Of a stretch of DNA of 64,000 bases, positions 326 through 32,799 are shown piece after piece; the stretch's first letter is position 1; the number at the start of each line of letters is the position of its first letter. The DNA lies in the NCBI GenBank assembly GCA_029838195.1, contig JALGVJ010000024.1, positions 1 to 64,000 of the forward strand, in the 5' to 3' direction. Position numbers and translations under genes: made by a program. The notes below the pieces were generated by a model, which was not told the origin of the DNA, made no database searches, and worked only from the letters and a program-made list of their open reading frames with translations. The DNA is from Promethearchaeota archaeon. GTDB taxonomy: Archaea; Asgardarchaeota; Lokiarchaeia; Sigyniarchaeales; SOKP01.

Positions 326-434
326 GGCCCGGTACGGGAATTGAACCCGTCTCTAGGGATTTCTGCTCTGTTCAATTGCTCATTCTAAAAAATGATTCAC
401 AGTCCCCAATACTAACCACTATACTAACCGGGCC
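326..434 (-). tRNA. tRNA-His(GTG) with encoded G-1 and a 36-nt intron (361-396) at position 37/38
   Basis: Minus strand: G-GCCCGGT acceptor paired with ACCGGGC-C, anticodon stem GGGGA/TCCCT, loop CT-GTG-A|intron|A, T arm ACGGG-TTCAATT-CCCGT. BHB: CTGT/GCAG helix with GA|A and AA|A bulges. CCA is not encoded. Confidence 0.93.
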
Positions 435-21289: not shown

Positions 21290-22102
21290 TTATAGCCCTT
21301 TCGGACCTTGCTCGTAAATCTCATATGCTTCATCAACAGAGGCATTTTCGTGAACAATCGCTCGGACGGCTTGAATCATGCCTATCGGACTATCTGATTG
21401 AAAAATATTTCTTCCCATATCTACGCCTACAGCTCCCTTATCAACAGCATTTTTGGACATTTGTAAGGCGTCCCGCTCCGGAATCTTCTTACCTCCTGCA
21501 ATGACAATCGGCACCGGACAAATGCTCGTTACATCTTCAAAATTATCGCAATAATAGGTTTTTACAAAGGTTGCGCCCATTTCGGCAGCTAATCTGCTTG
21601 CCATGCCCAAATAGCGCGCATCTCTTACCATATCTCGTCCTACAGCTGTAACTGCAAGTACTGGAATGCCATATTCTTGCCCCCAATTGACCAATTTCGA
21701 AAGATTCATGATGGTCTGCTTTTCATACTCTCCTCCTACGAATATTGAACACGTAATCGCCGAAACGTTCAAACGAATTGCATCCTCGATCGTTACATTA
21801 ATTTCTTCATTAGATAGTTCCTTTAACATGCTCGCACCAGCTGAAACTCTTAAAACGATGGGAATGTCCGAGTCAGGGCTCACGCAACTACGGAGCATCC
21901 CTCTCGTGAGCATGAGAGCATCAGCATACTGAAATAAAGGTTCTAAATCTCCAAAGCATTTGAGTGTACCTGGAATGTTGCCAAAATATTCATGAACATG
22001 CATGAATCATGCACGTTTTCCATGATCTACGGCAAGCATCACGCAACGTCCCGTTTTAGGCTTTATAATTCTTGAAAGACGGTTTTGCATTCCCCAATCC
22101 AT
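21290..22102 (-). CDS. lsrF: LsrF-like class I aldolase/thiolase (DhnA/FbaB family); split gene, exon1 22102-22019, exon2 21988-21290, 260 aa spliced
   Basis: [28 protein letters not shown]|YFGNIPG..., [29 protein letters not shown]. Confidence 0.88.
21989..22018 (-). other. 30-nt BHB-type intron in the lsrF-like mRNA
   Basis: CATG/CATG 4-bp helix, bulges GA|A and AA|T, intron hairpin AACGTGCATG-ATT-CATGCATGTT, in-frame TGA; removal restores DHGYF. Confidence 0.88.
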
Positions 22103-22333
22103 TATATATCAACTTCCATGATGGTAATTTAATTTCTTATTTTTTTTTAATTATTTACTTATTTCTTATCATGCGTTCTTAATTTTAGTAATTTTACTTC
22201 ATTTTAAAATCTTAAGAGAAAAAAAATTAACAAAGGCATTAAACACACGTGCCTCAAATGATTTTAAAGGCATTGTCCTGAAAAGTTCTACTCTCAATAA
22301 AGAAAGAATGAGAAGAAAAAAAATCGAGGTGAG

Positions 22334-23317
22334 TTAGAGTAATCCCAAGAATTCATGTACTCTGTTTTTGATCTTTTTTACTAAGGAGCTAGAAATTCTG
22401 TTTTGGATGTATTCTTTTATTAAATCGAAATGATATTTATTGATTTTAGAAATGTGAAGGGCTTTAGTCATTTGTTCAATAAGGTCGTTCATGTAAATCT
22501 CTTCCACGTCTTCTAGCACCTTTTTCACGTATTCTACTTCTTTTATGAATTTTTTAATTCCTTGCTGGAGAACAATTATTTGCTCATCTTCATTCATGAT
22601 ATTCAATGCTTTTTTAACGAGTTCTTCTTCAAATTTTAGAGAAGAATAATTCCAAGGAGTCTGTAAGATAATGTTATGAAGGTCAATGAGTAAAGCGTTT
22701 TTCTCTTTTAGTTTAATCTTATCATACTGAATATCTTTTAATGCTTGTGAGATCAGCTCTTCTTCAAATTTAACTGAAGAATAGTTCCATGATGTTGCTA
22801 AGATGTTGGGTTTGAAGTCAATCGGTGCACTTTTTTCTTTTGATTCGATCTTAGCATGTTGAATATCTTTTAAAACGGTTAACGGAGCAGTATCTTGAAT
22901 TGATGCGGGCAGAAATTGTTCGAAAAAGGCATTTAATTTATTGGCATCCTCGTCTGATATGTTATCTCTCATGATATAACTTGGATAATTAAAGAGTTTG
23001 GCATGAATTAAACTTAAAAAACCATAGGTGCCAAATTCATCGAGTAATGAACGGATGGTAAATTTTTTTTCAGCTCTTTCCTCTTTAACTTGAGGCGTGG
23101 GCCCCATGAAAATATCAATTTTTTCATATCCTCGTATGATACCTTTAGCATCGACGAAGACAATGAATTGATGCTCGCGACAAACGGCTCCAGCGGGAAT
23201 TTGGATTTTAATAGTTCCAAATTTCTTTTGTGAGAAAATGCGGTGAGGAACTTTAATGCTCTTAACCATTTGGCATATAGGACACGTTATCTCTAGTTCT
23301 TTAAAATCCTCTGGCAT
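22334..23317 (-). CDS. hypothetical protein with N-terminal Zn-ribbon-like domain and an internal 44-aa duplication
   Basis: CPIC...CREHQF; repeated DIQ...WNYSSxKFEEEL. Confidence 0.75.
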   Translation of the reverse strand: MPEDFKELEITCPICQMVKSIKVPHRIFSQKKFGTIKIQIPAGAVCREHQFIVFVDAKGIIRGYEKIDIFMGPTPQVKEERAEKKFTIRSLLDEFGTYGFLSLIHAKLFNYPSYIMRDNISDEDANKLNAFFEQFLPASIQDTAPLTVLKDIQHAKIESKEKSAPIDFKPNILATSWNYSSVKFEEELISQALKDIQYDKIKLKEKNALLIDLHNIILQTPWNYSSLKFEEELVKKALNIMNEDEQIIVLQQGIKKFIKEVEYVKKVLEDVEEIYMNDLIEQMTKALHISKINKYHFDLIKEYIQNRISSSLVKKIKNRVHEFLGLL

Positions 23318-23466
23318 GAAATCCCCAATTCCTATACTTTTTAAAAAATCGTGCTTTAATCAAATATATATATCTAAATTCTTAATGGTGCTACATAATT
23401 TAAAGTTATTTATTCAATAAATATTATACAAATTCCTACTATATAACTTTGATCCCTTTTTACCTC

Positions 23467-24486
23467 TCATCCTTGATGGGAGAAGAGGGATTCTATCCAT
23501 GGAATGATTTCTTTTAAAGCCTCATCGATGTATTCTTGAAAGATTAAATGTGAGGCGCCCTTTATCACGACCAATTGTCCTGGAGCGTTACTTAAACGCT
23601 CTTGTATTTCTTTCATGTAGTCCAATGAGAATAAGAAATCATGTTCGCCATTAATGATCAGGATAGGGGTAGTAATCTCTTCTATGGGTTTTGCTAGAGG
23701 CTCTTTTAACTGGGCTCTAAGAGCCGTTAATGTGTATTTCTTGGTGAGGAGTGGATCGTTCAAGAGAAATTCAATTCGCTCCGTGAATTTTGAATGTGCC
23801 AATTTTGAAAAATCTAAATAAAGGAAAACGCTAAACCTCCACGTGGGAAAGAGTCGAGCCATGAAAGGAATCAAATGAACTAAGATTCTTAATAAACCCT
23901 TAGGTTTTATGATTTTCTTGTAAGCTTTTTCGTTAAAAATGGCTGCATTATGGCATATTGCTCCTGTAATTCTAATATCATGGGCGGTAGCATAGAGCGT
24001 GGCGATTCCTCCTAAGCTTGACCCCATTAAAACGATCTTGTTTCCATGATTTTCAATTACATGATTAATAACCGCTTGAATCGTCTCCGAGAATTTTTTC
24101 ATGGTAAAATGGCCCCGCTTGCCTCCACTAAGCCCGTGCCCAATTAAATCAGGAGAAATAACGCAGTACCCTTCCTCATGCAAACGATAACAAAACTCCG
24201 CATAAAATTTGCTATATACGGCGGTGCCATGAATAAAAATAACGGTTCCTTTTACGTTCTGCGTAGGTTCATAAACATCGAGATGGATGGGCGTGCCATC
24301 GTCTAATTCAATGTATTTTTCTTGGATTACTTTTTTAATTTCATGGGGATTTTCAGAAAGAACATAATGAAACCAATAATCCGTATCCTTCACTTTTATT
24401 AACTCCTCATTTAAAGTATCAATTTTTAATAAGTCATGACAATTCTTTAATTTTAAGTCGTCCAATAGAATGGAATGTTGCCTCAT
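23467..24486 (-). CDS. alpha/beta hydrolase (lysophospholipase-like)
   Basis: FIHG, DLIGHGLSGGKRG, GSSLG nucleophile, GEHD, SH. Confidence 0.9.
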   Translation of the reverse strand: MRQHSILLDDLKLKNCHDLLKIDTLNEELIKVKDTDYWFHYVLSENPHEIKKVIQEKYIELDDGTPIHLDVYEPTQNVKGTVIFIHGTAVYSKFYAEFCYRLHEEGYCVISPDLIGHGLSGGKRGHFTMKKFSETIQAVINHVIENHGNKIVLMGSSLGGIATLYATAHDIRITGAICHNAAIFNEKAYKKIIKPKGLLRILVHLIPFMARLFPTWRFSVFLYLDFSKLAHSKFTERIEFLLNDPLLTKKYTLTALRAQLKEPLAKPIEEITTPILIINGEHDFLFSLDYMKEIQERLSNAPGQLVVIKGASHLIFQEYIDEALKEIIPWIESLFSHQG

Positions 24487-26219
24487 TATTTAATACTTGA
24501 TTTTTCTTTTCTCGCCTTTGGAAACATGCGATTAAAGATGAGATACATGAATCCCAATTCTACCATTCCCAGTCCTAAGAGGCATGAAATGAAAAGGAGG
24601 ATCCCTTGGGTGTAATATAAAAATGCTGGAAGTAATGCGGAGAGAGAAATGAAAAGATACGTGAAAAATATTAACCCAATCCATTTTAATATCTTATGAT
24701 TGGGATGGACTTCTTCCACTACGTATTTATATTTTAATTTGCCAAAAAACTGTACTTTTAACATGAAGGAAAGCAAGATACTTGCCCAAATCAGAGGTAA
24801 ACTTGCCGGAATAAAAATGAGTAAGTTGAACAATTTAGCATTAAACAGAAAGAGTACCATTTGTAATGAAAATGAAAGGGTCAATATCATCAACATGAGA
24901 TATAATTTTGCTTTAGCTTGGTCCCGTGGATAGATGGGCAAAGCGGCTAAGAGCGTGGTTCCAGATTCTTCCATTCCTAATAAACCCGAAATGAGCATGA
25001 GAGAAATAAAAGGACTCATGAATAACAAGATCCCAAAAATGGAAATTACTCCGATCTCGCCCATCTCGTTTTGGACATTCATTAATAGCGGAACACTGAA
25101 AAAAAAAGGAAAAATCAAGGGCATGATTAAAAACATTAAAGTTTGCAAGTCTCTGGTGGCTGTTAAAAGATCTTTTTTGAGAAATGCCTTTATAGGCGTG
25201 CTTAATTCAATTTCAATCACGATGTTGCCCTTGCTTTCCTCAATGCGTTGGCTACGGGAAGCTCTGATTTCATGAGAAGTAATTGTTTTTAATGAATTTA
25301 ATGCCCTTTTATAGATTTTAATAGTGATTATCGTGAAGAAAAAGAGGCCCACAAGAGAGGAGATCCACAGCTCAATGGGCTCCTCAACGGCATAACTCAT
25401 CAGTGTAATAAAATAACCCGAAGAAAATGGAAAGGGAATTAAACTCATTAGTATATTAAACCAAGTAGACGAGAGAAGAACAAAATCCGCGTGAACAAGA
25501 ACCTCAATGGACATGAAAAAACTCTGTAAGACAAACGCAGTACCAAAAGAAATGAAAATATACCCTAACATGGAAAAAATCCTCAAGAACGCGGCCTTTT
25601 TAGAATTAATATCGCCCAAGGTCATGATTTTATTTAATTTTTCTCCCACTATCACCAGCAAACTAAAGGAGAACATGACATTCAAAATTGAAATTAATAA
25701 ACTTGAAATAAATATTATTAGATTTAAGGTTCTTAATCCCATTATGATGGGAAATACGATGATTACAGCAATCAAAGGAAGGTCGAAGCTTCTAAAAAGG
25801 GTCATGAACCCAATTTTTCTCAGTTGGTCTTTTGAAATGGGCAATGTCTCCAACCATCTAAAAGTTTCTCCGGACATCATTGCACTCACGTTAAATAGCC
25901 CTAAAAGAAAAATATATAAAAATTGGATGATAAAGGTCATGCTAAAAATAAGATTTCCAATAAATAAAATGGACATTCTTGATAGTCCCCCTTCTTTCAT
26001 CGCTTCAAACAAGTATTGATAGGAAAAGAACGGCATTAAGGGAAGAATCACTAACACCCCCGTAAGAATTAATTTTATGATAAGCAATTGATATTTGAGG
26101 GATTTTTTATGCTTATCGAATTTTTCTAAAACTCGAGCTTGATTAGCTCCCGCTGTCATGAGCTGAGAATCCAGTACGATCTCAAGAGTCGTGTATTTCG
26201 CAATGGAATACGCTTTCAT
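24486..26219 (-). CDS. ABC exporter membrane subunit
   Basis: Polytopic membrane protein (LETLPIS, KKDL...RD) directly downstream of an ABC ATPase. Confidence 0.75.
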   Translation of the reverse strand: MKAYSIAKYTTLEIVLDSQLMTAGANQARVLEKFDKHKKSLKYQLLIIKLILTGVLVILPLMPFFSYQYLFEAMKEGGLSRMSILFIGNLIFSMTFIIQFLYIFLLGLFNVSAMMSGETFRWLETLPISKDQLRKIGFMTLFRSFDLPLIAVIIVFPIIMGLRTLNLIIFISSLLISILNVMFSFSLLVIVGEKLNKIMTLGDINSKKAAFLRIFSMLGYIFISFGTAFVLQSFFMSIEVLVHADFVLLSSTWFNILMSLIPFPFSSGYFITLMSYAVEEPIELWISSLVGLFFFTIITIKIYKRALNSLKTITSHEIRASRSQRIEESKGNIVIEIELSTPIKAFLKKDLLTATRDLQTLMFLIMPLIFPFFFSVPLLMNVQNEMGEIGVISIFGILLFMSPFISLMLISGLLGMEESGTTLLAALPIYPRDQAKAKLYLMLMILTLSFSLQMVLFLFNAKLFNLLIFIPASLPLIWASILLSFMLKVQFFGKLKYKYVVEEVHPNHKILKWIGLIFFTYLFISLSALLPAFLYYTQGILLFISCLLGLGMVELGFMYLIFNRMFPKARKEKSSIK

Positions 26220-26242
26220 TAGAAGACCATTCTAAACCATGA

Positions 26243-27043
26243 TTAATTTACTTTATTTTTTTTAAAGGACACCCGCAGCCGTTCTACGATTTGATCTACG
26301 GAAGTGTCTTGTTCTGTAAGCCTTAAAAACACGTCTTCCAAGCTTGCTCCAATTTTATTCGCTTTTTTGCGTAATTCTTCCATGGTACCAATTCCTACCA
26401 TTTTTCCTTTATTAATGATCCCGATTCTATCGCATAAATCTTCAGCGATTTCCATGATGTGCGTGGAAAATAAGACAGACCCTCCATTTTGAACATGTAA
26501 TTCTAATATTTCTTTTACCACCTTGACGGATTTTGCATCCAAACCAGACAAGGGCTCATCCAAGATAAGGAGATCGGGTTCATGAAGAATTGCAGCGATG
26601 ATCTGGATTTTCTGTTTATTTCCATGCGATAACGTGCCAATTAATTGATTATAATATTCTATCGCTTCTAAACTTTCTAAATATTCTCTTGCTTTTTTTG
26701 AAGTATAATCTTGATCTAACCCGCGTATTGAAGCTATAAAGTTAAATGCATCCTTTGGAGTGAGAGATTTAAATATGAGAGCCTCTTCGGCTACATATCC
26801 TATTTTCTGTTTTATTAATACGTCATCTCGTTCTGGATTCCATCCAAATACCTCCATTTCACCACCATCAGGCTCTAACAGACCTAAAAGTAGTTTAATA
26901 GTGGTTGTCTTACCCGCTCCATTAGGCCCTAATAATCCAAAAATTTCTCCGGGAAAAACTTCAAATGATATTCCATCTACAGCATTAATTTCATTAAAAT
27001 ATTTCTTTAAGTTACTAACGCGAATTATCGGTTGAGATTCCAT
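26243..27043 (-). CDS. ABC transporter ATP-binding protein
   Basis: GPNGAGKTT, LSHGNKQK, ILDEP, STH. Confidence 0.95.
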   Translation of the reverse strand: MESQPIIRVSNLKKYFNEINAVDGISFEVFPGEIFGLLGPNGAGKTTTIKLLLGLLEPDGGEMEVFGWNPERDDVLIKQKIGYVAEEALIFKSLTPKDAFNFIASIRGLDQDYTSKKAREYLESLEAIEYYNQLIGTLSHGNKQKIQIIAAILHEPDLLILDEPLSGLDAKSVKVVKEILELHVQNGGSVLFSTHIMEIAEDLCDRIGIINKGKMVGIGTMEELRKKANKIGASLEDVFLRLTEQDTSVDQIVERLRVSFKKNKVN

Positions 27044-27103
27044 GATATTGGTTCAAAAATTAAATTTTTTAAAAAGTTATTAACGCTTGAATTTTTCATG
27101 TAA

Positions 27104-28096
27104 TTAAAATTGTAGGAACTTATATTTTTTCTCATTTTTGTTATGTTCTTTTTCCTTTTTTTGGGACATGATAACTATAATGGAAAAAATAACAATAATC
27201 GTCCCGATTAAATGATAGATCGTGAATTCTTCCTTTAAAAGAAGGGTAGCATAGAGCGCTGTTGTGATAGGAGTTGGAGAAACAAGCATGCTTGCTTTTG
27301 ATATGTCTAAGTAAGATAATGTTTTATACCAAGCCCATAATCCGCTACAATATACAAGTCCCATGGCCCACATGTAAAATAAATTTAGGGGATCTAAAAA
27401 GAGACTGATATTTTCTATAGGAAAGAAGATAAAATAACTTGAGATTAGAGCGATTCCTCCAATTATATTTCTCAAAAATACTATTTGTGTTGGTGTAGAT
27501 TCGTTCTTTAAGAAGAGTGGCTTAGTATATGTGTGAGCCAACATCCAAAAGCAAGTAAGCACGAGTAATATAATTACCCCTTGGTTAATCTCTAATAAAT
27601 TGAATGAGGCTTGAGTGACAGCAAAGATTAATCCAAAAAAAAGAAGAAAACAGAAAATAATTTGAATTTTCGTGAGCCTTTCTTTCAAGATGAGCGCTCC
27701 AAAAATTAATGAAAAGATAATGGTCGATTTTTGAGCAATAGCACCAGGAATGGCTCCAGCAAGTTGGTATCCAAGGAAAAAAAGAATATGTCCAAATCCG
27801 AAGGTTAATCCTATAAACAATAATAGTTTTTTATTCCTTTTCCATCCATTTAATTTTGCCATTGCAAGTTCTTTATTTCCTCCTTCTTCAGCATTATTCA
27901 AGACCATTCTTAATTTTTTCCTTTCTTTCAAAAATAATGGGAAAAATATAATTGCTTCTACCAGGCAAGTAGTCGCAGCAAATAAATAAGAATCAATAAT
28001 TAAAGGCCTGGAATTTGCAACTATGGGTTGGAATCCAATTAAAAATGTAGCTAATACTCCGAAACTTACTCCTTTTTTCTCATTTGTTAATTTCAA
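27104..28096 (-). CDS. DMT/EamA family transporter
   Basis: 10 TM helices, ILKERL and LLKEEF repeats. Confidence 0.85.
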   Translation of the reverse strand: MKLTNEKKGVSFGVLATFLIGFQPIVANSRPLIIDSYLFAATTCLVEAIIFFPLFLKERKKLRMVLNNAEEGGNKELAMAKLNGWKRNKKLLLFIGLTFGFGHILFFLGYQLAGAIPGAIAQKSTIIFSLIFGALILKERLTKIQIIFCFLLFFGLIFAVTQASFNLLEINQGVIILLVLTCFWMLAHTYTKPLFLKNESTPTQIVFLRNIIGGIALISSYFIFFPIENISLFLDPLNLFYMWAMGLVYCSGLWAWYKTLSYLDISKASMLVSPTPITTALYATLLLKEEFTIYHLIGTIIVIFSIIVIMSQKKEKEHNKNEKKYKFLQF

Positions 28097-28357
28097 AACA
28101 TGATTACGAAATGTATTGATTAATAAAAAATTTTAGAAAATTTTGAGGAACTAGTGCGGTGTTTAGGGAGGTGAGAAGGATAAAACCTTGATGCGCTTTT
28201 TTTAAAGAAAAATTGAGGAGTATTATAAATAATAATATATGCTATTGAATTTAATCATGGTTATTTTTTTAATTTGGTAAAAAATCAGATATTTTACGAC
28301 TCTAATAACCAGTATTTAATTAAAATTTTTATGAAAAAAGTATTTCCCTACATCTCT

Positions 28358-29209
28358 TTATTTCGATAATTTTGCGTAGCCCGGTTTTATTAAGAAACCA
28401 AGAAATACCATGAAATACACGAACATGTCGATGAGTTCTGCAAAAATTAAGGAAGACACTAAGGAGGCATCATTTACAAACTCATTTCTTAGCTGAGAGG
28501 TATAAAAGCTCAGGATGATTGCCAATAGAAAGCCAAGACCGATGATTAACCCGTGAGCCTGAGAGAGGCGTTTATATTTATACATGATAAAAAACATTAC
28601 AACAATTCCGAGGAGTGTAGTAGTCAATATGATTGAATAAAGTAAAATTACCAACTCAATCGTAGGAAGAATGAGGATGATAAACGTAGTGCCCGTAAAG
28701 AAACCAGTAAATATGAAAAATCTAACCCTCTTTGCCACGTATTCAGGCAGTTCTCTAATAAACGTGGTGAAAATGGAAAAGAGGACAAAAATTCCTAAAT
28801 AAAAGAGAGGAAGAGTGTTAAAAATGATCAGTAAATATCTCGTCTTTAGATAAAATAAGATGATTTGATATTCCAAGGTAATTTGAGAATAATAAAGATA
28901 CCCGAATAAGTCTTGAATTTTTCCATATATCAAAATGTTAAAAAACATCCCGAATAAGAAATAAGCGTCCGACAAGAAAAGAGCTTCCTGTTGAAACCAT
29001 TTATGATATAAAATCACACTCATCAAGATAAACAAGCCAATTCTGATGAGTTCAATGAAAATTATTTCCCATAAGATGTGTAGTGGAGAAGAAATATTTA
29101 CAAGCACCTGAAACATTATTGTCCAATAAATTATCACTAAAACAATGCCACTAATGTTGCCCGATATAATCCCAAGTAAATATTTTCTTTTTTGATCTAA
29201 TTCTAACAT
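28358..29209 (-). CDS. hypothetical polytopic membrane protein
   Basis: ~7-8 hydrophobic segments. Confidence 0.7.
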   Translation of the reverse strand: MLELDQKRKYLLGIISGNISGIVLVIIYWTIMFQVLVNISSPLHILWEIIFIELIRIGLFILMSVILYHKWFQQEALFLSDAYFLFGMFFNILIYGKIQDLFGYLYYSQITLEYQIILFYLKTRYLLIIFNTLPLFYLGIFVLFSIFTTFIRELPEYVAKRVRFFIFTGFFTGTTFIILILPTIELVILLYSIILTTTLLGIVVMFFIMYKYKRLSQAHGLIIGLGFLLAIILSFYTSQLRNEFVNDASLVSSLIFAELIDMFVYFMVFLGFLIKPGYAKLSK

Positions 29210-29429
29210 TTTAGAGTTTATTCATGTTTCTGTACGAATTGATAAAAACATCGAGAAAAATCTTACAATCGTAAAAAAATAATTTCTAATAGATTATTAA
29301 AAAATTATTAATGCCAAGTTTTACCTTAAAGATTTGAAAAAAATGCTAGATTAAAATAACGTGTCAATTGAAAGGGTTAAAAATTAATAAGAAAAAAAAT
29401 AAAAAATTGTTGAATTTAACTGTGCTTTT

Positions 29430-31256
29430 TTATCCCTTAGAATACGTTCCAAAAAGGGGATAATCTTTTAAAAATGTACCCGTAAAAATCGGTCCCTCCT
29501 TACACACGCATGCGTCATTATTTGGTCCAATACAGCATGAACCGCAAGTTCCCACGCCGCATTTCATTTTCCGTTCTAAAGAAGCTTGTAATTCAATCCC
29601 TTTTTCTGTAGCAATCTCTAGTACTTTTTTCATCATCACTTCAGGGCCGCATGTTATTATTAAATCTATGGGATGCTGGTTTAAAATGTCATCTAAAGCA
29701 TCCGTTACGAGACATTTTTTTCCAACAGAGCCATCATCCGTCGTACATAAAGTATTTGGAATATGTTCTATTAATCTATCGGCAAAAATCAAGGAAGCCT
29801 CGTCTTTTGCTCCGATAGCCACGTATACGTTCTTCTTATTTTGTTTCAAGGGTTCGATTAAAGATGTAAGTGCCGCAATTCCCATGCCCCCTCCTACAAT
29901 GAGGATATTTGTCGCATCTTCGTAATTCCAGGCATTTCCAAAAGGACCACGAATTCCAATTTTATCCCCCTTTTTTAATTCAAAAAGTCTTGAGGTACCC
30001 TCTCCGATTTTTTGCACGGTAATTTCTATTAGGCTGCCATTCACTGCCGATACAGACATTGGGAGGAAATCCACGTCCGGAATCCAAAGAATGACAAATT
30101 GGCCCGGTTTATACGCACTTGCAATTCTGGGGTTTCGAATCACGAACGATTTAATCTCAGCAGAATGCTCAATAATATCTTCTATTATTGAAAGATCCGT
30201 TTTGTTACGGGTGAGTTCAAGGACTAATTCTTCCTCATCCTTTTCTAAAGGAGCAATTTCTATAATTCCTTTATCAACAGCCGCCTCCATTAATTTTTTT
30301 CCTTTTTCCGTTCTAATAATAACGGTTCGCCAGCCTTCCTTACTATTACTCCCCACCTCGCCTATGGATAAATCAGCAAAAGATGCTGTATAATCCGAAC
30401 ACGAAAAGCAAGCCGTTCGAATCGCCTTATCATATAATTCTTTTAGGGAGATATTTTTTTTCTCCGAATCGTGATGAATGATCATTTTAAAGCGGTCGTT
30501 ATCTTTCTCAATTTTTTTAATATTCTCTGAAATAACACCATTCTCCTTGAATAGCTCCATTAAGCCTTGATTATGAAAAGTTCCAAAACAAAACGTTCCT
30601 ATCGCCAGTGTTACTAAATCATACGCCTCAAAATCAAATCTCGGATGATTTTGTAGTTTTCTAAGGGCTTGAACTTGACAAGGCGTTCCCACTACACCTA
30701 TATCCACGAATCCCTTGTTAATCGCTTCTCCGACCAAGGAAAGCGTCGGACTCTGACTTGGTTTATATCCAATCCCCTTAGTTAACTCTTCCTTCGATTT
30801 TGCAAGAAAAGGTTGCGGCCTAAATTTATCATCCTTTGAAGTAATGATTGCTGCATCAATCATTCCTACATCCATCGCAACCCACGATAATGCGGTTATG
30901 ACTCCTGCTTCTATGGGTAATTCTTTACGAGCAGCCTCCGACACGCGTGCTGATACGATCTCAATATAATGCCCTAAAATTTTATCCTGCTGCTTACCGA
31001 ATACCCATTTATCCAGCAATTGCAAGGGAATTTGATTCGTCTCCGTTTTAGGACAAATATTATAGCATAACCCGTATCCATCCCTACAAGTATTAGCATC
31101 CTTACAAGAACCGTCCTCAAATGGACGTTCTTTATCAATATCAAACCGAATATTGGCACAAAACGCTCCGCAAGCCCCACAATACACGCATTTACCCGTT
31201 TCTATTATTTCCTCGTTTAATTCCTTCCACCCCTTCTGAATCTTTTGAATATACAT
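29430..31256 (-). CDS. FrhB/FdhB (F420 hydrogenase beta)-like domain fused to a PyrK-like FAD/NAD/[2Fe-2S] electron-transfer domain
   Basis: CVYCGACGAFC, VGTPCQ, CFSCSD, ADLSIG; then KPGQF, GPFGN, GGGMG, CGP, MKCGVGTCGSC, CKEGP. Confidence 0.88.
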   Translation of the reverse strand: MYIQKIQKGWKELNEEIIETGKCVYCGACGAFCANIRFDIDKERPFEDGSCKDANTCRDGYGLCYNICPKTETNQIPLQLLDKWVFGKQQDKILGHYIEIVSARVSEAARKELPIEAGVITALSWVAMDVGMIDAAIITSKDDKFRPQPFLAKSKEELTKGIGYKPSQSPTLSLVGEAINKGFVDIGVVGTPCQVQALRKLQNHPRFDFEAYDLVTLAIGTFCFGTFHNQGLMELFKENGVISENIKKIEKDNDRFKMIIHHDSEKKNISLKELYDKAIRTACFSCSDYTASFADLSIGEVGSNSKEGWRTVIIRTEKGKKLMEAAVDKGIIEIAPLEKDEEELVLELTRNKTDLSIIEDIIEHSAEIKSFVIRNPRIASAYKPGQFVILWIPDVDFLPMSVSAVNGSLIEITVQKIGEGTSRLFELKKGDKIGIRGPFGNAWNYEDATNILIVGGGMGIAALTSLIEPLKQNKKNVYVAIGAKDEASLIFADRLIEHIPNTLCTTDDGSVGKKCLVTDALDDILNQHPIDLIITCGPEVMMKKVLEIATEKGIELQASLERKMKCGVGTCGSCCIGPNNDACVCKEGPIFTGTFLKDYPLFGTYSKG

Positions 31257-31882
31257 CTACTTTTCTCCCTCCTTTAATTTATTAAGAAATTCTTGAGCCT
31301 CTTTTTTTCCCAATTCAAATGCTTCTAAATTCTTTTCCAAAGCTGATTTGGGAACAAATTCTTTAATTGTCTCTATAGCGGCCTCCTCAGAAAAAAGCCC
31401 GGAGAGAACGGTAAACGCTCCAAACAAGATGGTGTTGCCATATACCCGATCCCCGAACTTTTCTAACGCCATTTTCTGAACCGGAATCGCCAACGATTTT
31501 ACTCGTGCCGCTGTCTTGAACTTGCTTATCGTGGAAGGATCCCATAATAAAAATCCCGTATCTTTTCCCTTCTTTAACTGATTTTTTTTGACATCTTTCG
31601 CCGCCTCCTCAGATAAAATGATCAAAAAATCATAGGGCTCCAAGGCTTTTGGATAATCTATGAGTTTTGTTTCCCTATCTCTATCCACCACGACCTCAGC
31701 CCAACATTTTCCTCCCCGTGCAGATGCTGAATAAGCTTCTGTTTGCGTGGCAGCCAAGCCCTCGTGGATAGCACTTGCCATGGTGATCATCTTCGAGAGG
31801 GTGATAACGCCATAGTCTTTAAGAGGATATCTCTTTAAATTTGACCACCAAACCCGGAAATCCTAATCTCATATCTGTCCAT
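31257..31882 (-). CDS. korC: 2-oxoacid:ferredoxin oxidoreductase gamma subunit; split gene, exon1 31882-31841, exon2 31811-31257, 198 aa spliced
   Basis: MDRYEIRISGFGGQ|GVITLSKMI..., AYSASARGG, NTILFGA, NLEAFELG; GAGGT SD upstream of 31882. Confidence 0.88.
31812..31840 (-). other. 29-nt BHB-type intron in the gamma-subunit mRNA
   Basis: GGTC/GACT 4-bp helix, bulges AA|A and AT|G, intron hairpin TTTAAAGAG-ATATC-CTCTTAAA; removal restores the frame and GFGGQGV. Confidence 0.88.
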
Positions 31883-31887
31883 GGTAT

Positions 31888-32799
31888 TTACCTCATCGCT
31901 ATTTCTTGAATTTTTCTATATTCTTCAGAATATTCAGGTTTATCTGGTTCGTAGCGAAATTCTCCAATGACATACTTGTTAAACAACTCTTTTTCGGTCA
32001 TGAACTTGGCTTGATTAATCCGAACCGAATTTCGCTTGATCCAGTCCATCATGATGCCTGCTCGATCCATCTTCACGCCTTTTTCTCCTACATCCTCCGC
32101 TCCTAAACTGCTCAAGTTTTTTCTGCCAAAATACGTAACGCATGGCGTGATTATTTCGATGACTGACGTGCCTTTATGTCGCAAGGCCTTTTTAAAATAT
32201 TTCATGAAAGTACGGGGATGAGCCACGGTTGTTCGGGCCACGTACGTTGCTCCTGCGGCCAATGCCAATTGCACGCCATCGCTTCTATTTTCAAACATCT
32301 TGTAAGGCGTGGTGGTGCTATTAGCACCATAAAGGGTTGTAGGAGCTCCCTGCCCGCCCGTCATGGCATAAATGCTGTTGTTAAAGATGAATAAAATCGC
32401 ATCCAAATTTCGACGGCATAAGTGAATGAAATGATTTCCTCCAATTCCCAAGCAATCTCCATCACCGGAAAATATGATCGGCTTCAATTTCGGGTTTGCC
32501 ATCTTAATACCCGTGGCAATCGCCGGCGCTCTACCATGTAATGTTAAGATTTTTTGAGCGGCATGATGCACGATTAACATTATTTGTGAATAACAGCCAA
32601 TTCCTACAACTAATGGATATAATCTGGGATCTAATTTCTCATCCTCAAACACGCGGGTATAAATTTGCCCAATTATGCCATAACCGCATCCTGCACAAAA
32701 TCTAGTGGTAAAATTCCCAAAAAGCTTGCCCCCATAAGATGAAGTTAAATAGGGATGTTCAGGCTTCTCGTTTGGAAGCATCTGGCCAATCTCACTCAT
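31888..32799 (-). CDS. korB: 2-oxoacid:ferredoxin oxidoreductase beta subunit (TPP-binding)
   Basis: FCAGCG, GIGC, HGRA, GDGD...GGNH, NNSIYAMTGGQ. Confidence 0.92.
   Translation of the reverse strand: MSEIGQMLPNEKPEHPYLTSSYGGKLFGNFTTRFCAGCGYGIIGQIYTRVFEDEKLDPRLYPLVVGIGCYSQIMLIVHHAAQKILTLHGRAPAIATGIKMANPKLKPIIFSGDGDCLGIGGNHFIHLCRRNLDAILFIFNNSIYAMTGGQGAPTTLYGANSTTTPYKMFENRSDGVQLALAAGATYVARTTVAHPRTFMKYFKKALRHKGTSVIEIITPCVTYFGRKNLSSLGAEDVGEKGVKMDRAGIMMDWIKRNSVRINQAKFMTEKELFNKYVIGEFRYEPDKPEYSEEYRKIQEIAMR

Follow-up and report, generated by a model that had tools for sequence, protein, structure and literature searches.

Two protein-coding genes of an Asgard archaeon appear broken close to their 5′ ends, which raises the question of whether they have decayed or whether their transcripts are mended before translation. 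Both lie on the minus strand within the first 64,000 nucleotides (nt) of contig JALGVJ010000024.1 of Promethearchaeota archaeon (assembly GCA_029838195.1), a stretch hereafter called the window. Gene 1 codes for a DhnA/LsrF-type aldolase and gene 2 for the gamma subunit of a 2-oxoacid:ferredoxin oxidoreductase (OFOR). An original prediction, made from the letters of the window alone, held that each is interrupted by a bulge-helix-bulge (BHB) intron, and placed the host among Asgard-like archaea, in agreement with the label Promethearchaeota (Asgard) carried by its close relatives. Our analysis leads to the same reading, to which we give a probability of roughly 85%: both inserts are probably archaeal BHB introns in coding sequence, spliced by the endonuclease EndA and the ligase RtcB, whose cleavage and ligation steps we infer from sequence comparison.

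The reading frame of gene 1 opens at ATG 22102 and runs for 28 codons to GAT CAT GGA, closing, on direct reading, on AVDHG, which includes the conserved DHG. An insert of 30 nt follows, with an in-frame TGA as its fourth codon, and the frame resumes behind it at TAT TTT GGC (YFGNIPG...). In gene 2, 14 codons lead from ATG 31882 to GGT GGT CAA, the 29-nt insert brings TAA as its second codon together with a frame shift, and the sequence continues as GGC GTT ATC (GVITLSKMI...). The insertion points after codons 28 and 14, each inside a conserved motif (DHG; GGQ), and the stop within each insert were thus read directly as originally described. The open reading frame (ORF) of gene 1 that starts at ATG 22003 matched PF01791 (DeoC/LacD-family aldolase) in a family scan and scored 347.6 bits against NF006081, an LsrF-type thiolase model, over profile positions 59-288 of 291, while exon 2 of gene 2 alone matched PF01558 and gamma-subunit models. 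Since these profile matches begin at position 59 and at positions 13-14, respectively, the plain ORFs of both genes lack an N-terminus. The expectation that gene callers would have recorded such truncated forms was borne out by public collections, which hold products of exactly 237 and 177 amino acids (aa). Removal of the inserts would yield a predicted aldolase of 260 aa and a predicted OFOR gamma subunit of 198 aa, and the predicted junction peptides of the two spliced products are ..AVDHGYFGNIPG.. and ..GFGGQGVITLSK...

Each insert can be folded with its exon ends into a BHB. In gene 1, a central helix of 4 base pairs (bp; CAUG/CAUG) has on its opposite strands two 3-nt bulges (GA↓A and AA↓U, where ↓ marks the expected cut) and is accompanied by an outer helix of 4 bp (AGAU/AUUU) and an inner helix of 10 bp with a 3-nt loop, the flanking helices of the strict hBHBh′ form. 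The 4-bp central helix of gene 2 (GGUC/GACU) is flanked by the 3-nt bulges AA↓A and AU↓G, and its inner arm consists of 5 bp, a 1-nt bulge and 3 bp. All three predicted elements, the 4-bp helix, the pair of 3-nt bulges and the intron hairpin, were therefore found in both folds. The cut described for the archaeal cbf5 intron falls "between the second and third residues in the bulges" (PMC2738675). Cuts placed after the second bulge nucleotide give DHG↓YFG in gene 1 and GGQ↓GVI in gene 2, which are the junctions of the insert-free orthologs, as the prediction had claimed on the grounds of protein conservation. The likeness of the two inserts is one of structure, as had been noticed, with no sequence in common, and five intron sequences were each single-copy in the 4.5-Mb assembly. 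The likeness extends to the tRNA-His(GUG) gene of the window, where the 36-nt intron has the same geometry, with a central helix CUGU/GCAG and bulges GA↓A and AA↓A. This tRNA was found in the Rfam scan of the window, which returned tRNA only and no ribozyme family; a default ARAGORN run over the window reported no tRNA, and ARAGORN placed introns in 23 of 36 tRNA genes as a rough count. By chance, strict BHB motifs (central helix 4/4, inner helix of at least 5, length 18-80) arose at 153,031 of approximately 5.7e8 (site, length) pairs in this genome, a rate of 2.7e-4, with few pairs permitted per junction.

A genome search for EndA homologs returned three PF01974 matches above the cut-off, with two full-length ORFs (202 and 199 aa) and a fragment-like one of 106 aa, and the genome has one PF01139 match for RtcB. 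The 202-aa homolog is most similar to crenarchaeal catalytic subunits, and the EndA of Asgard archaea has been reported as a broad-specificity (alpha-beta)2 type (PMC5829648). In the mechanism that we propose, the pre-mRNA would fold locally, with four nucleotides of exon 1 pairing with four at the 3′ end of the insert, so that the central helix would be flanked by the two 3-nt bulges, the intron hairpin and a short exon-exon helix. EndA, the tRNA-splicing endonuclease, would cleave both bulges behind their second nucleotide, after which the exons would be joined by RtcB, which would probably also circularise the 29-30-nt intron. Joining of the exons would restore a single reading frame in each gene.

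Table 1. Coordinates of the interrupted genes, their candidate introns and related features. Plain positions refer to the window; G000 is this genome, with its contigs numbered C.
Feature	Location	Strand	Evidence or remark
Aldolase exon 1, 28 codons, conserved DHG end	22019..22102	-	Conserved in 28/28 orthologs
Candidate BHB intron A, 30 nt, in-frame TGA	21989..22018	-	Reading, fold, orthologs; holds ATG 22003, the start chosen by gene callers
Aldolase exon 2, YFGNIPG... to stop	21290..21988	-	PF01791; NF006081
Gene 1 whole BHB motif	21984..22028	-	Outer helix 22028-22025/21987-21984; central helix 22024-22021/21994-21991; bulges 22020-22018 and 21990-21988
OFOR gamma exon 1, 14 codons, MDRYEIRISGFGGQ	31841..31882	-	Direct reading
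Candidate BHB intron of gene 2, 29 nt, TAA as second codon, frame-shifting	31812..31840	-	Removal gives +55 alignment score versus G026 ortholog
OFOR gamma exon 2, GVITLSKMI... to stop	31257..31811	-	PF01558; gamma models from position 13-14
Gene 2 whole BHB motif	31809..31848	-	Outer helix 2 bp; central helix 31846-31843/31817-31814; bulges 31842-31840 and 31813-31811
tRNA-His(GUG) with 36-nt canonical 37/38 BHB intron (396..361)	326..433	-	Rfam; geometry same as gene inserts
EndA-family gene	G000:C1:152191-152421 (202-aa homolog)		PF01974
EndA-family gene	G000:C8:28388-28642 (199-aa homolog)		PF01974
EndA-family gene	G000:C53:22042-22209		PF01974
E2 ubiquitin-conjugating enzyme, strict BHB insert, 31 nt	G000:C72 ~37273	-	FQPP↓YAYAVTLMWHPN; conserved motif split
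Elp3 (elp3), strict BHB insert, 31 nt	G000:C23 ~59922	-	GHDVD↓KIELIVMGGT; conserved motif split
DnaG (dnaG), strict BHB insert, 37 nt	G000:C38 ~55023	-	GAIFGQ↓TEGLL; conserved motif split

The distribution of the inserts was followed in 61 genomes of the same class, including G000. An aldolase ortholog was present in 28 genomes, all of the same family, with 80-92% aa identity over exon 2. DNA alignment revealed zero, one, two or three inserts per ortholog at three positions, namely A (DHG↓YFG, 30 nt; G000, G001, G016, G030 and G004), B (GG↓KK, 30-36 nt; G003, G035 and G004) and C (32 nt; six genomes and two further metagenome-assembled genomes, MAGs). The inserts thus behave as discrete units that are present or absent among close orthologs, and the G004 gene, which has them at all three positions, still keeps approximately 80% aa identity. 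BHB geometry was recognized in all 16 distinct aldolase inserts, with a central helix of 4/4 in 14 and of 3/4 in two. Canonical cuts mend the frame in every one of them, and their deletion gives proteins of 256-261 aa in 27 of the 28 genomes. A separate observation concerns the insert-free aldolase of G013 (locus L010, contig C144), where two conserved Glu codons in GGEYEKQ (codons ~115 and ~117) read TAA, that is, GAA>TAA twice within 7 nt; this may reflect a pseudogene, an error in the reads or another cause.

Among the gamma-subunit genes, 21 other orthologs are insert-free and that of G006 (locus L042, contig C189) carries two inserts. The first is a 30-nt BHB located 1 nt from the G000 site, in phase 1 and not phase 0, and unrelated in sequence, suggesting an independent gain at a hotspot. 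The second, also of 30 nt, has a canonical 5′ site and a 3′ junction 2 nt past the strict position, which makes it a relaxed motif. In the aldolase gene tree, introns are scattered across several clades; because the backbone is poorly resolved, the tree is silent on gains versus losses versus transfer of alleles. The introns resemble passengers in evolutionary flux, appearing and disappearing at sites where the exon sequence can form the motif.

Comparison of the insert sequences revealed fast divergence with pairing kept. For intron C, 92.5% of the cells were paired, compared with 22-48% in slid controls, and none of 500 shuffles reached as high a value. Six of its pairs have changed on both sides, and in the central helix a synonymous C>U in the exon is matched by a G>A in the intron. 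Intron A was 94% paired, with three compensatory pairs. The original prediction named relaxed selection (dN/dS near 1) as the signature of pseudogenes, and this was not seen: between insert-bearing genomes, synonymous differences (pS) reached 0.55-0.79, near saturation, and non-synonymous differences (pN) only 0.06-0.14. In exon 1 itself, insert-bearing genomes of genus g1 and genus g4 differ by 10-12 synonymous versus 2-6 non-synonymous changes. Judged by these substitutions, strong purifying selection acts on exon 1 of the aldolase in the genomes that carry inserts. Such selection on the gene and on exon 1 speaks for the exclusion of pseudogenes and implies translation of exons 1 and 2 in a common frame.

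Several observations weigh against splicing by EndA and RtcB. The minimum-free-energy fold of gene 1 favours a slightly different register with one bulge, the BHB being an alternative of the same hairpin. In gene 2, the outer helix has only 2 bp, nearer to the relaxed HBh′ form, and the fold is no better than that of shuffled sequence (z -0.09 to -1.8). Some inserts of the relatives are not strict either, having 3/4 central pairs or, in the second G006 insert, the displaced 3′ site. Finally, we scanned the genome by structure only, combining a strict BHB with ORF joining, with and without filters for hexamer coding score and hairpin quality, and using mirrored geometry as control. No excess of such sites over the mirrored control was obtained (e.g., 1956 versus 1948; 348 versus 307). 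Structure-only scans are unfit for counting introns because the signal is drowned by gene boundaries and chance hairpins, and the genome-wide signal consequently comes from homology and not from the motif by itself.

Four other explanations must be set against these data. If the genes were pseudogenes, or the inserts artefacts of assembly or sequencing, the in-frame stops, the frameshift and the fact that public gene callers gave truncated ORFs only would follow directly. We consider this scarcely credible, however, given the purifying selection on both the whole gene and exon 1 in insert-bearing lineages, the recurrence of the same insert positions in independent MAGs with sequences that have diverged but are structurally compensated, and the identity retained by the ortholog with three inserts. 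Moreover, in a re-examination of four DNA runs, with short contigs of low depth, a contig from another metagenome run (X3 record 24) crossed the gene 2 insert without a gap. It is also very unlikely that the inserts are never removed and that N-truncated proteins are made from internal starts (ATG 22003; ATG 31790), with exon 1 dispensable or a separate peptide. Internal ATGs do exist, one of them within intron A, but that ATG is not conserved among the other intron-A sequences, and the exon 1 protein is conserved despite saturated synonymous change. Exon 1 also bears the family motifs DHG and GxGGQG, with profiles beginning 13-58 positions upstream of the truncated ORFs, and internal starts would leave the selection on the BHB unexplained.

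Alternatively, the inserts could stay in the mRNA and be skipped by the ribosome, through translational bypass or other recoding. In T4 gene 60, the ribosome bypasses an untranslated gap that has a hairpin and a stop codon after the take-off site, and the short gap, the hairpin and the stop right behind the take-off site seen here resemble it. Yet the take-off and landing codons do not match (GGA versus GAA/UAU; CAA versus UAU/GGC), and neither the selected pairing of exon 1 with the 3′-terminal part of the insert nor the 3-nt bulges are needed for bypassing. The geometry is, in addition, identical to that of the tRNA-His intron, and all sixteen instances, at four positions, obey the BHB cut rule, which makes bypass highly improbable. 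An equally slim chance is left for excision at the RNA level by something other than EndA and RtcB, such as another RNase or self-cleavage. Three EndA-like genes without assigned roles are present in the genome, but the conserved features are exactly those that EndA recognizes, and no ribozyme family was found in the window by Rfam. Group I and group II introns are much larger than inserts of 29-36 nt, and self-splicing introns of these groups were ruled out for the 29-30-nt inserts of the window because the ribozyme core has hundreds of nucleotides. Insertion of a miniature inverted-repeat transposable element or another repeated mobile element was ruled out as well, there being no further copies of the intron sequences in the assembly.

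Two further features surround the gamma-subunit gene. Immediately upstream is the gene of the beta subunit (31888-32799), and the gene that follows directly on gene 2 (29430-31256, minus strand) codes for a 608-aa protein in which an FrhB/FdhB-like F420-type flavoprotein is fused to a PyrK/NfnA-like FAD/NAD/[2Fe-2S] domain. In run X2, one low-depth contig matches up to exactly 31840, the boundary of intron and exon 1, and continues into unrelated sequence.

The frequency of such introns was estimated by a homology-based census, in which ortholog pairs were compared with 1.19 Mb of one relative, G026, for cases where removal of a strict-BHB candidate improves colinearity. Plain splitting of tblastn high-scoring segment pairs (HSPs) missed both introns of the window, owing to short first exons and to in-frame inserts being absorbed into gapped HSPs, and BHB-guided spliced alignment was used instead. 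Four of 668 pairs were positive in G000: the two genes of the window, the E2 ubiquitin-conjugating enzyme on contig C72 and an ambiguous AT-rich case on contig C1. The mirrored control scored at those same broken genes only. In the ambiguous case (G000:C1 ~112571-112592, minus strand), comparison with the G026 ortholog shows the gene to be broken. Several AT-rich, BHB-like candidates of 22 or 28 nt mend it, and a mirrored candidate does so about equally well, leaving a frameshifted gene or a relaxed intron as the two readings. The insert of E2, the one gene among E2, elp3 and dnaG that was compared with an ortholog, is missing from G026. The rpl11 and pyrG sites of this genome gave no full strict BHB in the scan. 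A reverse census in G026 found two genes broken relative to their G000 orthologs (G026:C10 ~423570 and ~762060), with mirrored candidates mending them equally well and no clear BHB. These counts suggest that BHB introns may occur in approximately 0.5% of the genes (3-4 of 668 pairs), or tens per genome, an estimate that is blind to relaxed motifs and to introns shared with G026. Two in the roughly 55 genes of the window, or 4%, is a local excess. The original prediction of a genome-wide splicing system is supported by the comparative evidence and by the E2, elp3 and dnaG inserts, but the density that it took from the window was too high; a genome scan of the kind it proposed gave a signal at homology-supported genes and none above the mirrored control by structure only.

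The closest known system is the cbf5 pre-mRNA intron of Crenarchaeota (Watanabe 2002; Yoshinari 2006; Yokobori 2009, PMC2738675), which is likewise short, lies in coding sequence and has a BHB-type motif made of exon and intron. It shares with the present inserts the cut between the second and third bulge residues, a link to hetero-oligomeric EndA and gain and loss among related species. It differs in that the genes here are others (aldolase, OFOR gamma, E2, elp3 and dnaG), in an Asgard lineage, with several such genes per genome and up to three introns in one gene, and in that splicing is something we infer here; the cbf5 motif is also an "unconventional" BHB, compared with the mostly strict hBHBh′ form found here. 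The cbf5 intron itself, which sits at the catalytic Asp codon of cbf5, was ruled out since the hosts are aldolase and OFOR gamma genes. In Haloferax volcanii, HVO_1309 has a 46-nt BHB intron in its 5′ untranslated region (UTR), demonstrated by circular RNA sequencing and in vitro cleavage (PMC7714728). It is similarly an EndA substrate in an mRNA but stands in an untranslated leader, not between codons, and is a single case in its genome. The same 2020 paper gives cbf5 as the only case of a BHB intron in coding sequence (PMC7714728). Documented cases in the searchable literature are limited to crenarchaeal cbf5 for coding sequence and to Haloferax for the 5′ UTR of an mRNA. Archaeal tRNA introns, of which tRNA-His is a direct example, share the motif, the size range of tens of nucleotides, the presumed enzymes and a patchy, repeated gain, and are very abundant in some Asgard lineages (PMC11291895; bioRxiv 10.64898/2026.10.13.758758). 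Our literature search found no paper on BHB introns in Asgard protein genes, the Asgard work covering tRNA introns only. The comparative evidence argues strongly that the inserts would be further EndA-spliced mRNA introns of the cbf5 type, occurring in a lineage new for this class and in several genes per genome.

A likeness to HAC1/XBP1 had also been proposed. In that system, a small mRNA intron is excised without a spliceosome, by an endonuclease and then by joining of the tRNA-ligase type (RtcB in animals); the endonuclease, Ire1, recognises paired stem-loops, and the process is stress-regulated. Non-spliceosomal excision and RtcB-type ligation are features in common, but there the cut is made by Ire1 and here the signal is a BHB motif. 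The comparison therefore stands as an analogy only, since both the endonuclease and the RNA motif differ. An Ire1-type intron, with two stem-loops and cut sites in 7-nt loops, was ruled out for the present inserts, as their cut sites sit in 3-nt BHB bulges; no search aimed at Ire1 itself was made.

Archaeal mRNA splicing has so far been treated as a one-gene curiosity, whereas the genes described here are ordinary metabolic ones in which the candidate introns are polymorphic between close relatives and their structure is selected. On balance, we favour the view that Asgard archaea of this family have routine EndA/RtcB-dependent mRNA splicing, which would involve tens of genes per genome, both metabolic and informational, and BHB introns of 16-40 nt, up to three per gene, gained and lost over genus-level time-scales where the local codons can supply one half of the motif. 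The public annotation of these genes is incorrect, consisting of N-truncated or split ORFs, and Asgard genomes need intron-aware annotation. The lineage nearest to eukaryotes would then tolerate interrupted protein genes and repair them by a protein-only splicing system, which would open intron gain and loss, and "proto-splice sites", to study in a prokaryote. If this is true, interrupted protein genes and dedicated mending of their transcripts would be normal in the closest prokaryotic relatives of eukaryotes, and the expression of such genes may depend on splicing.

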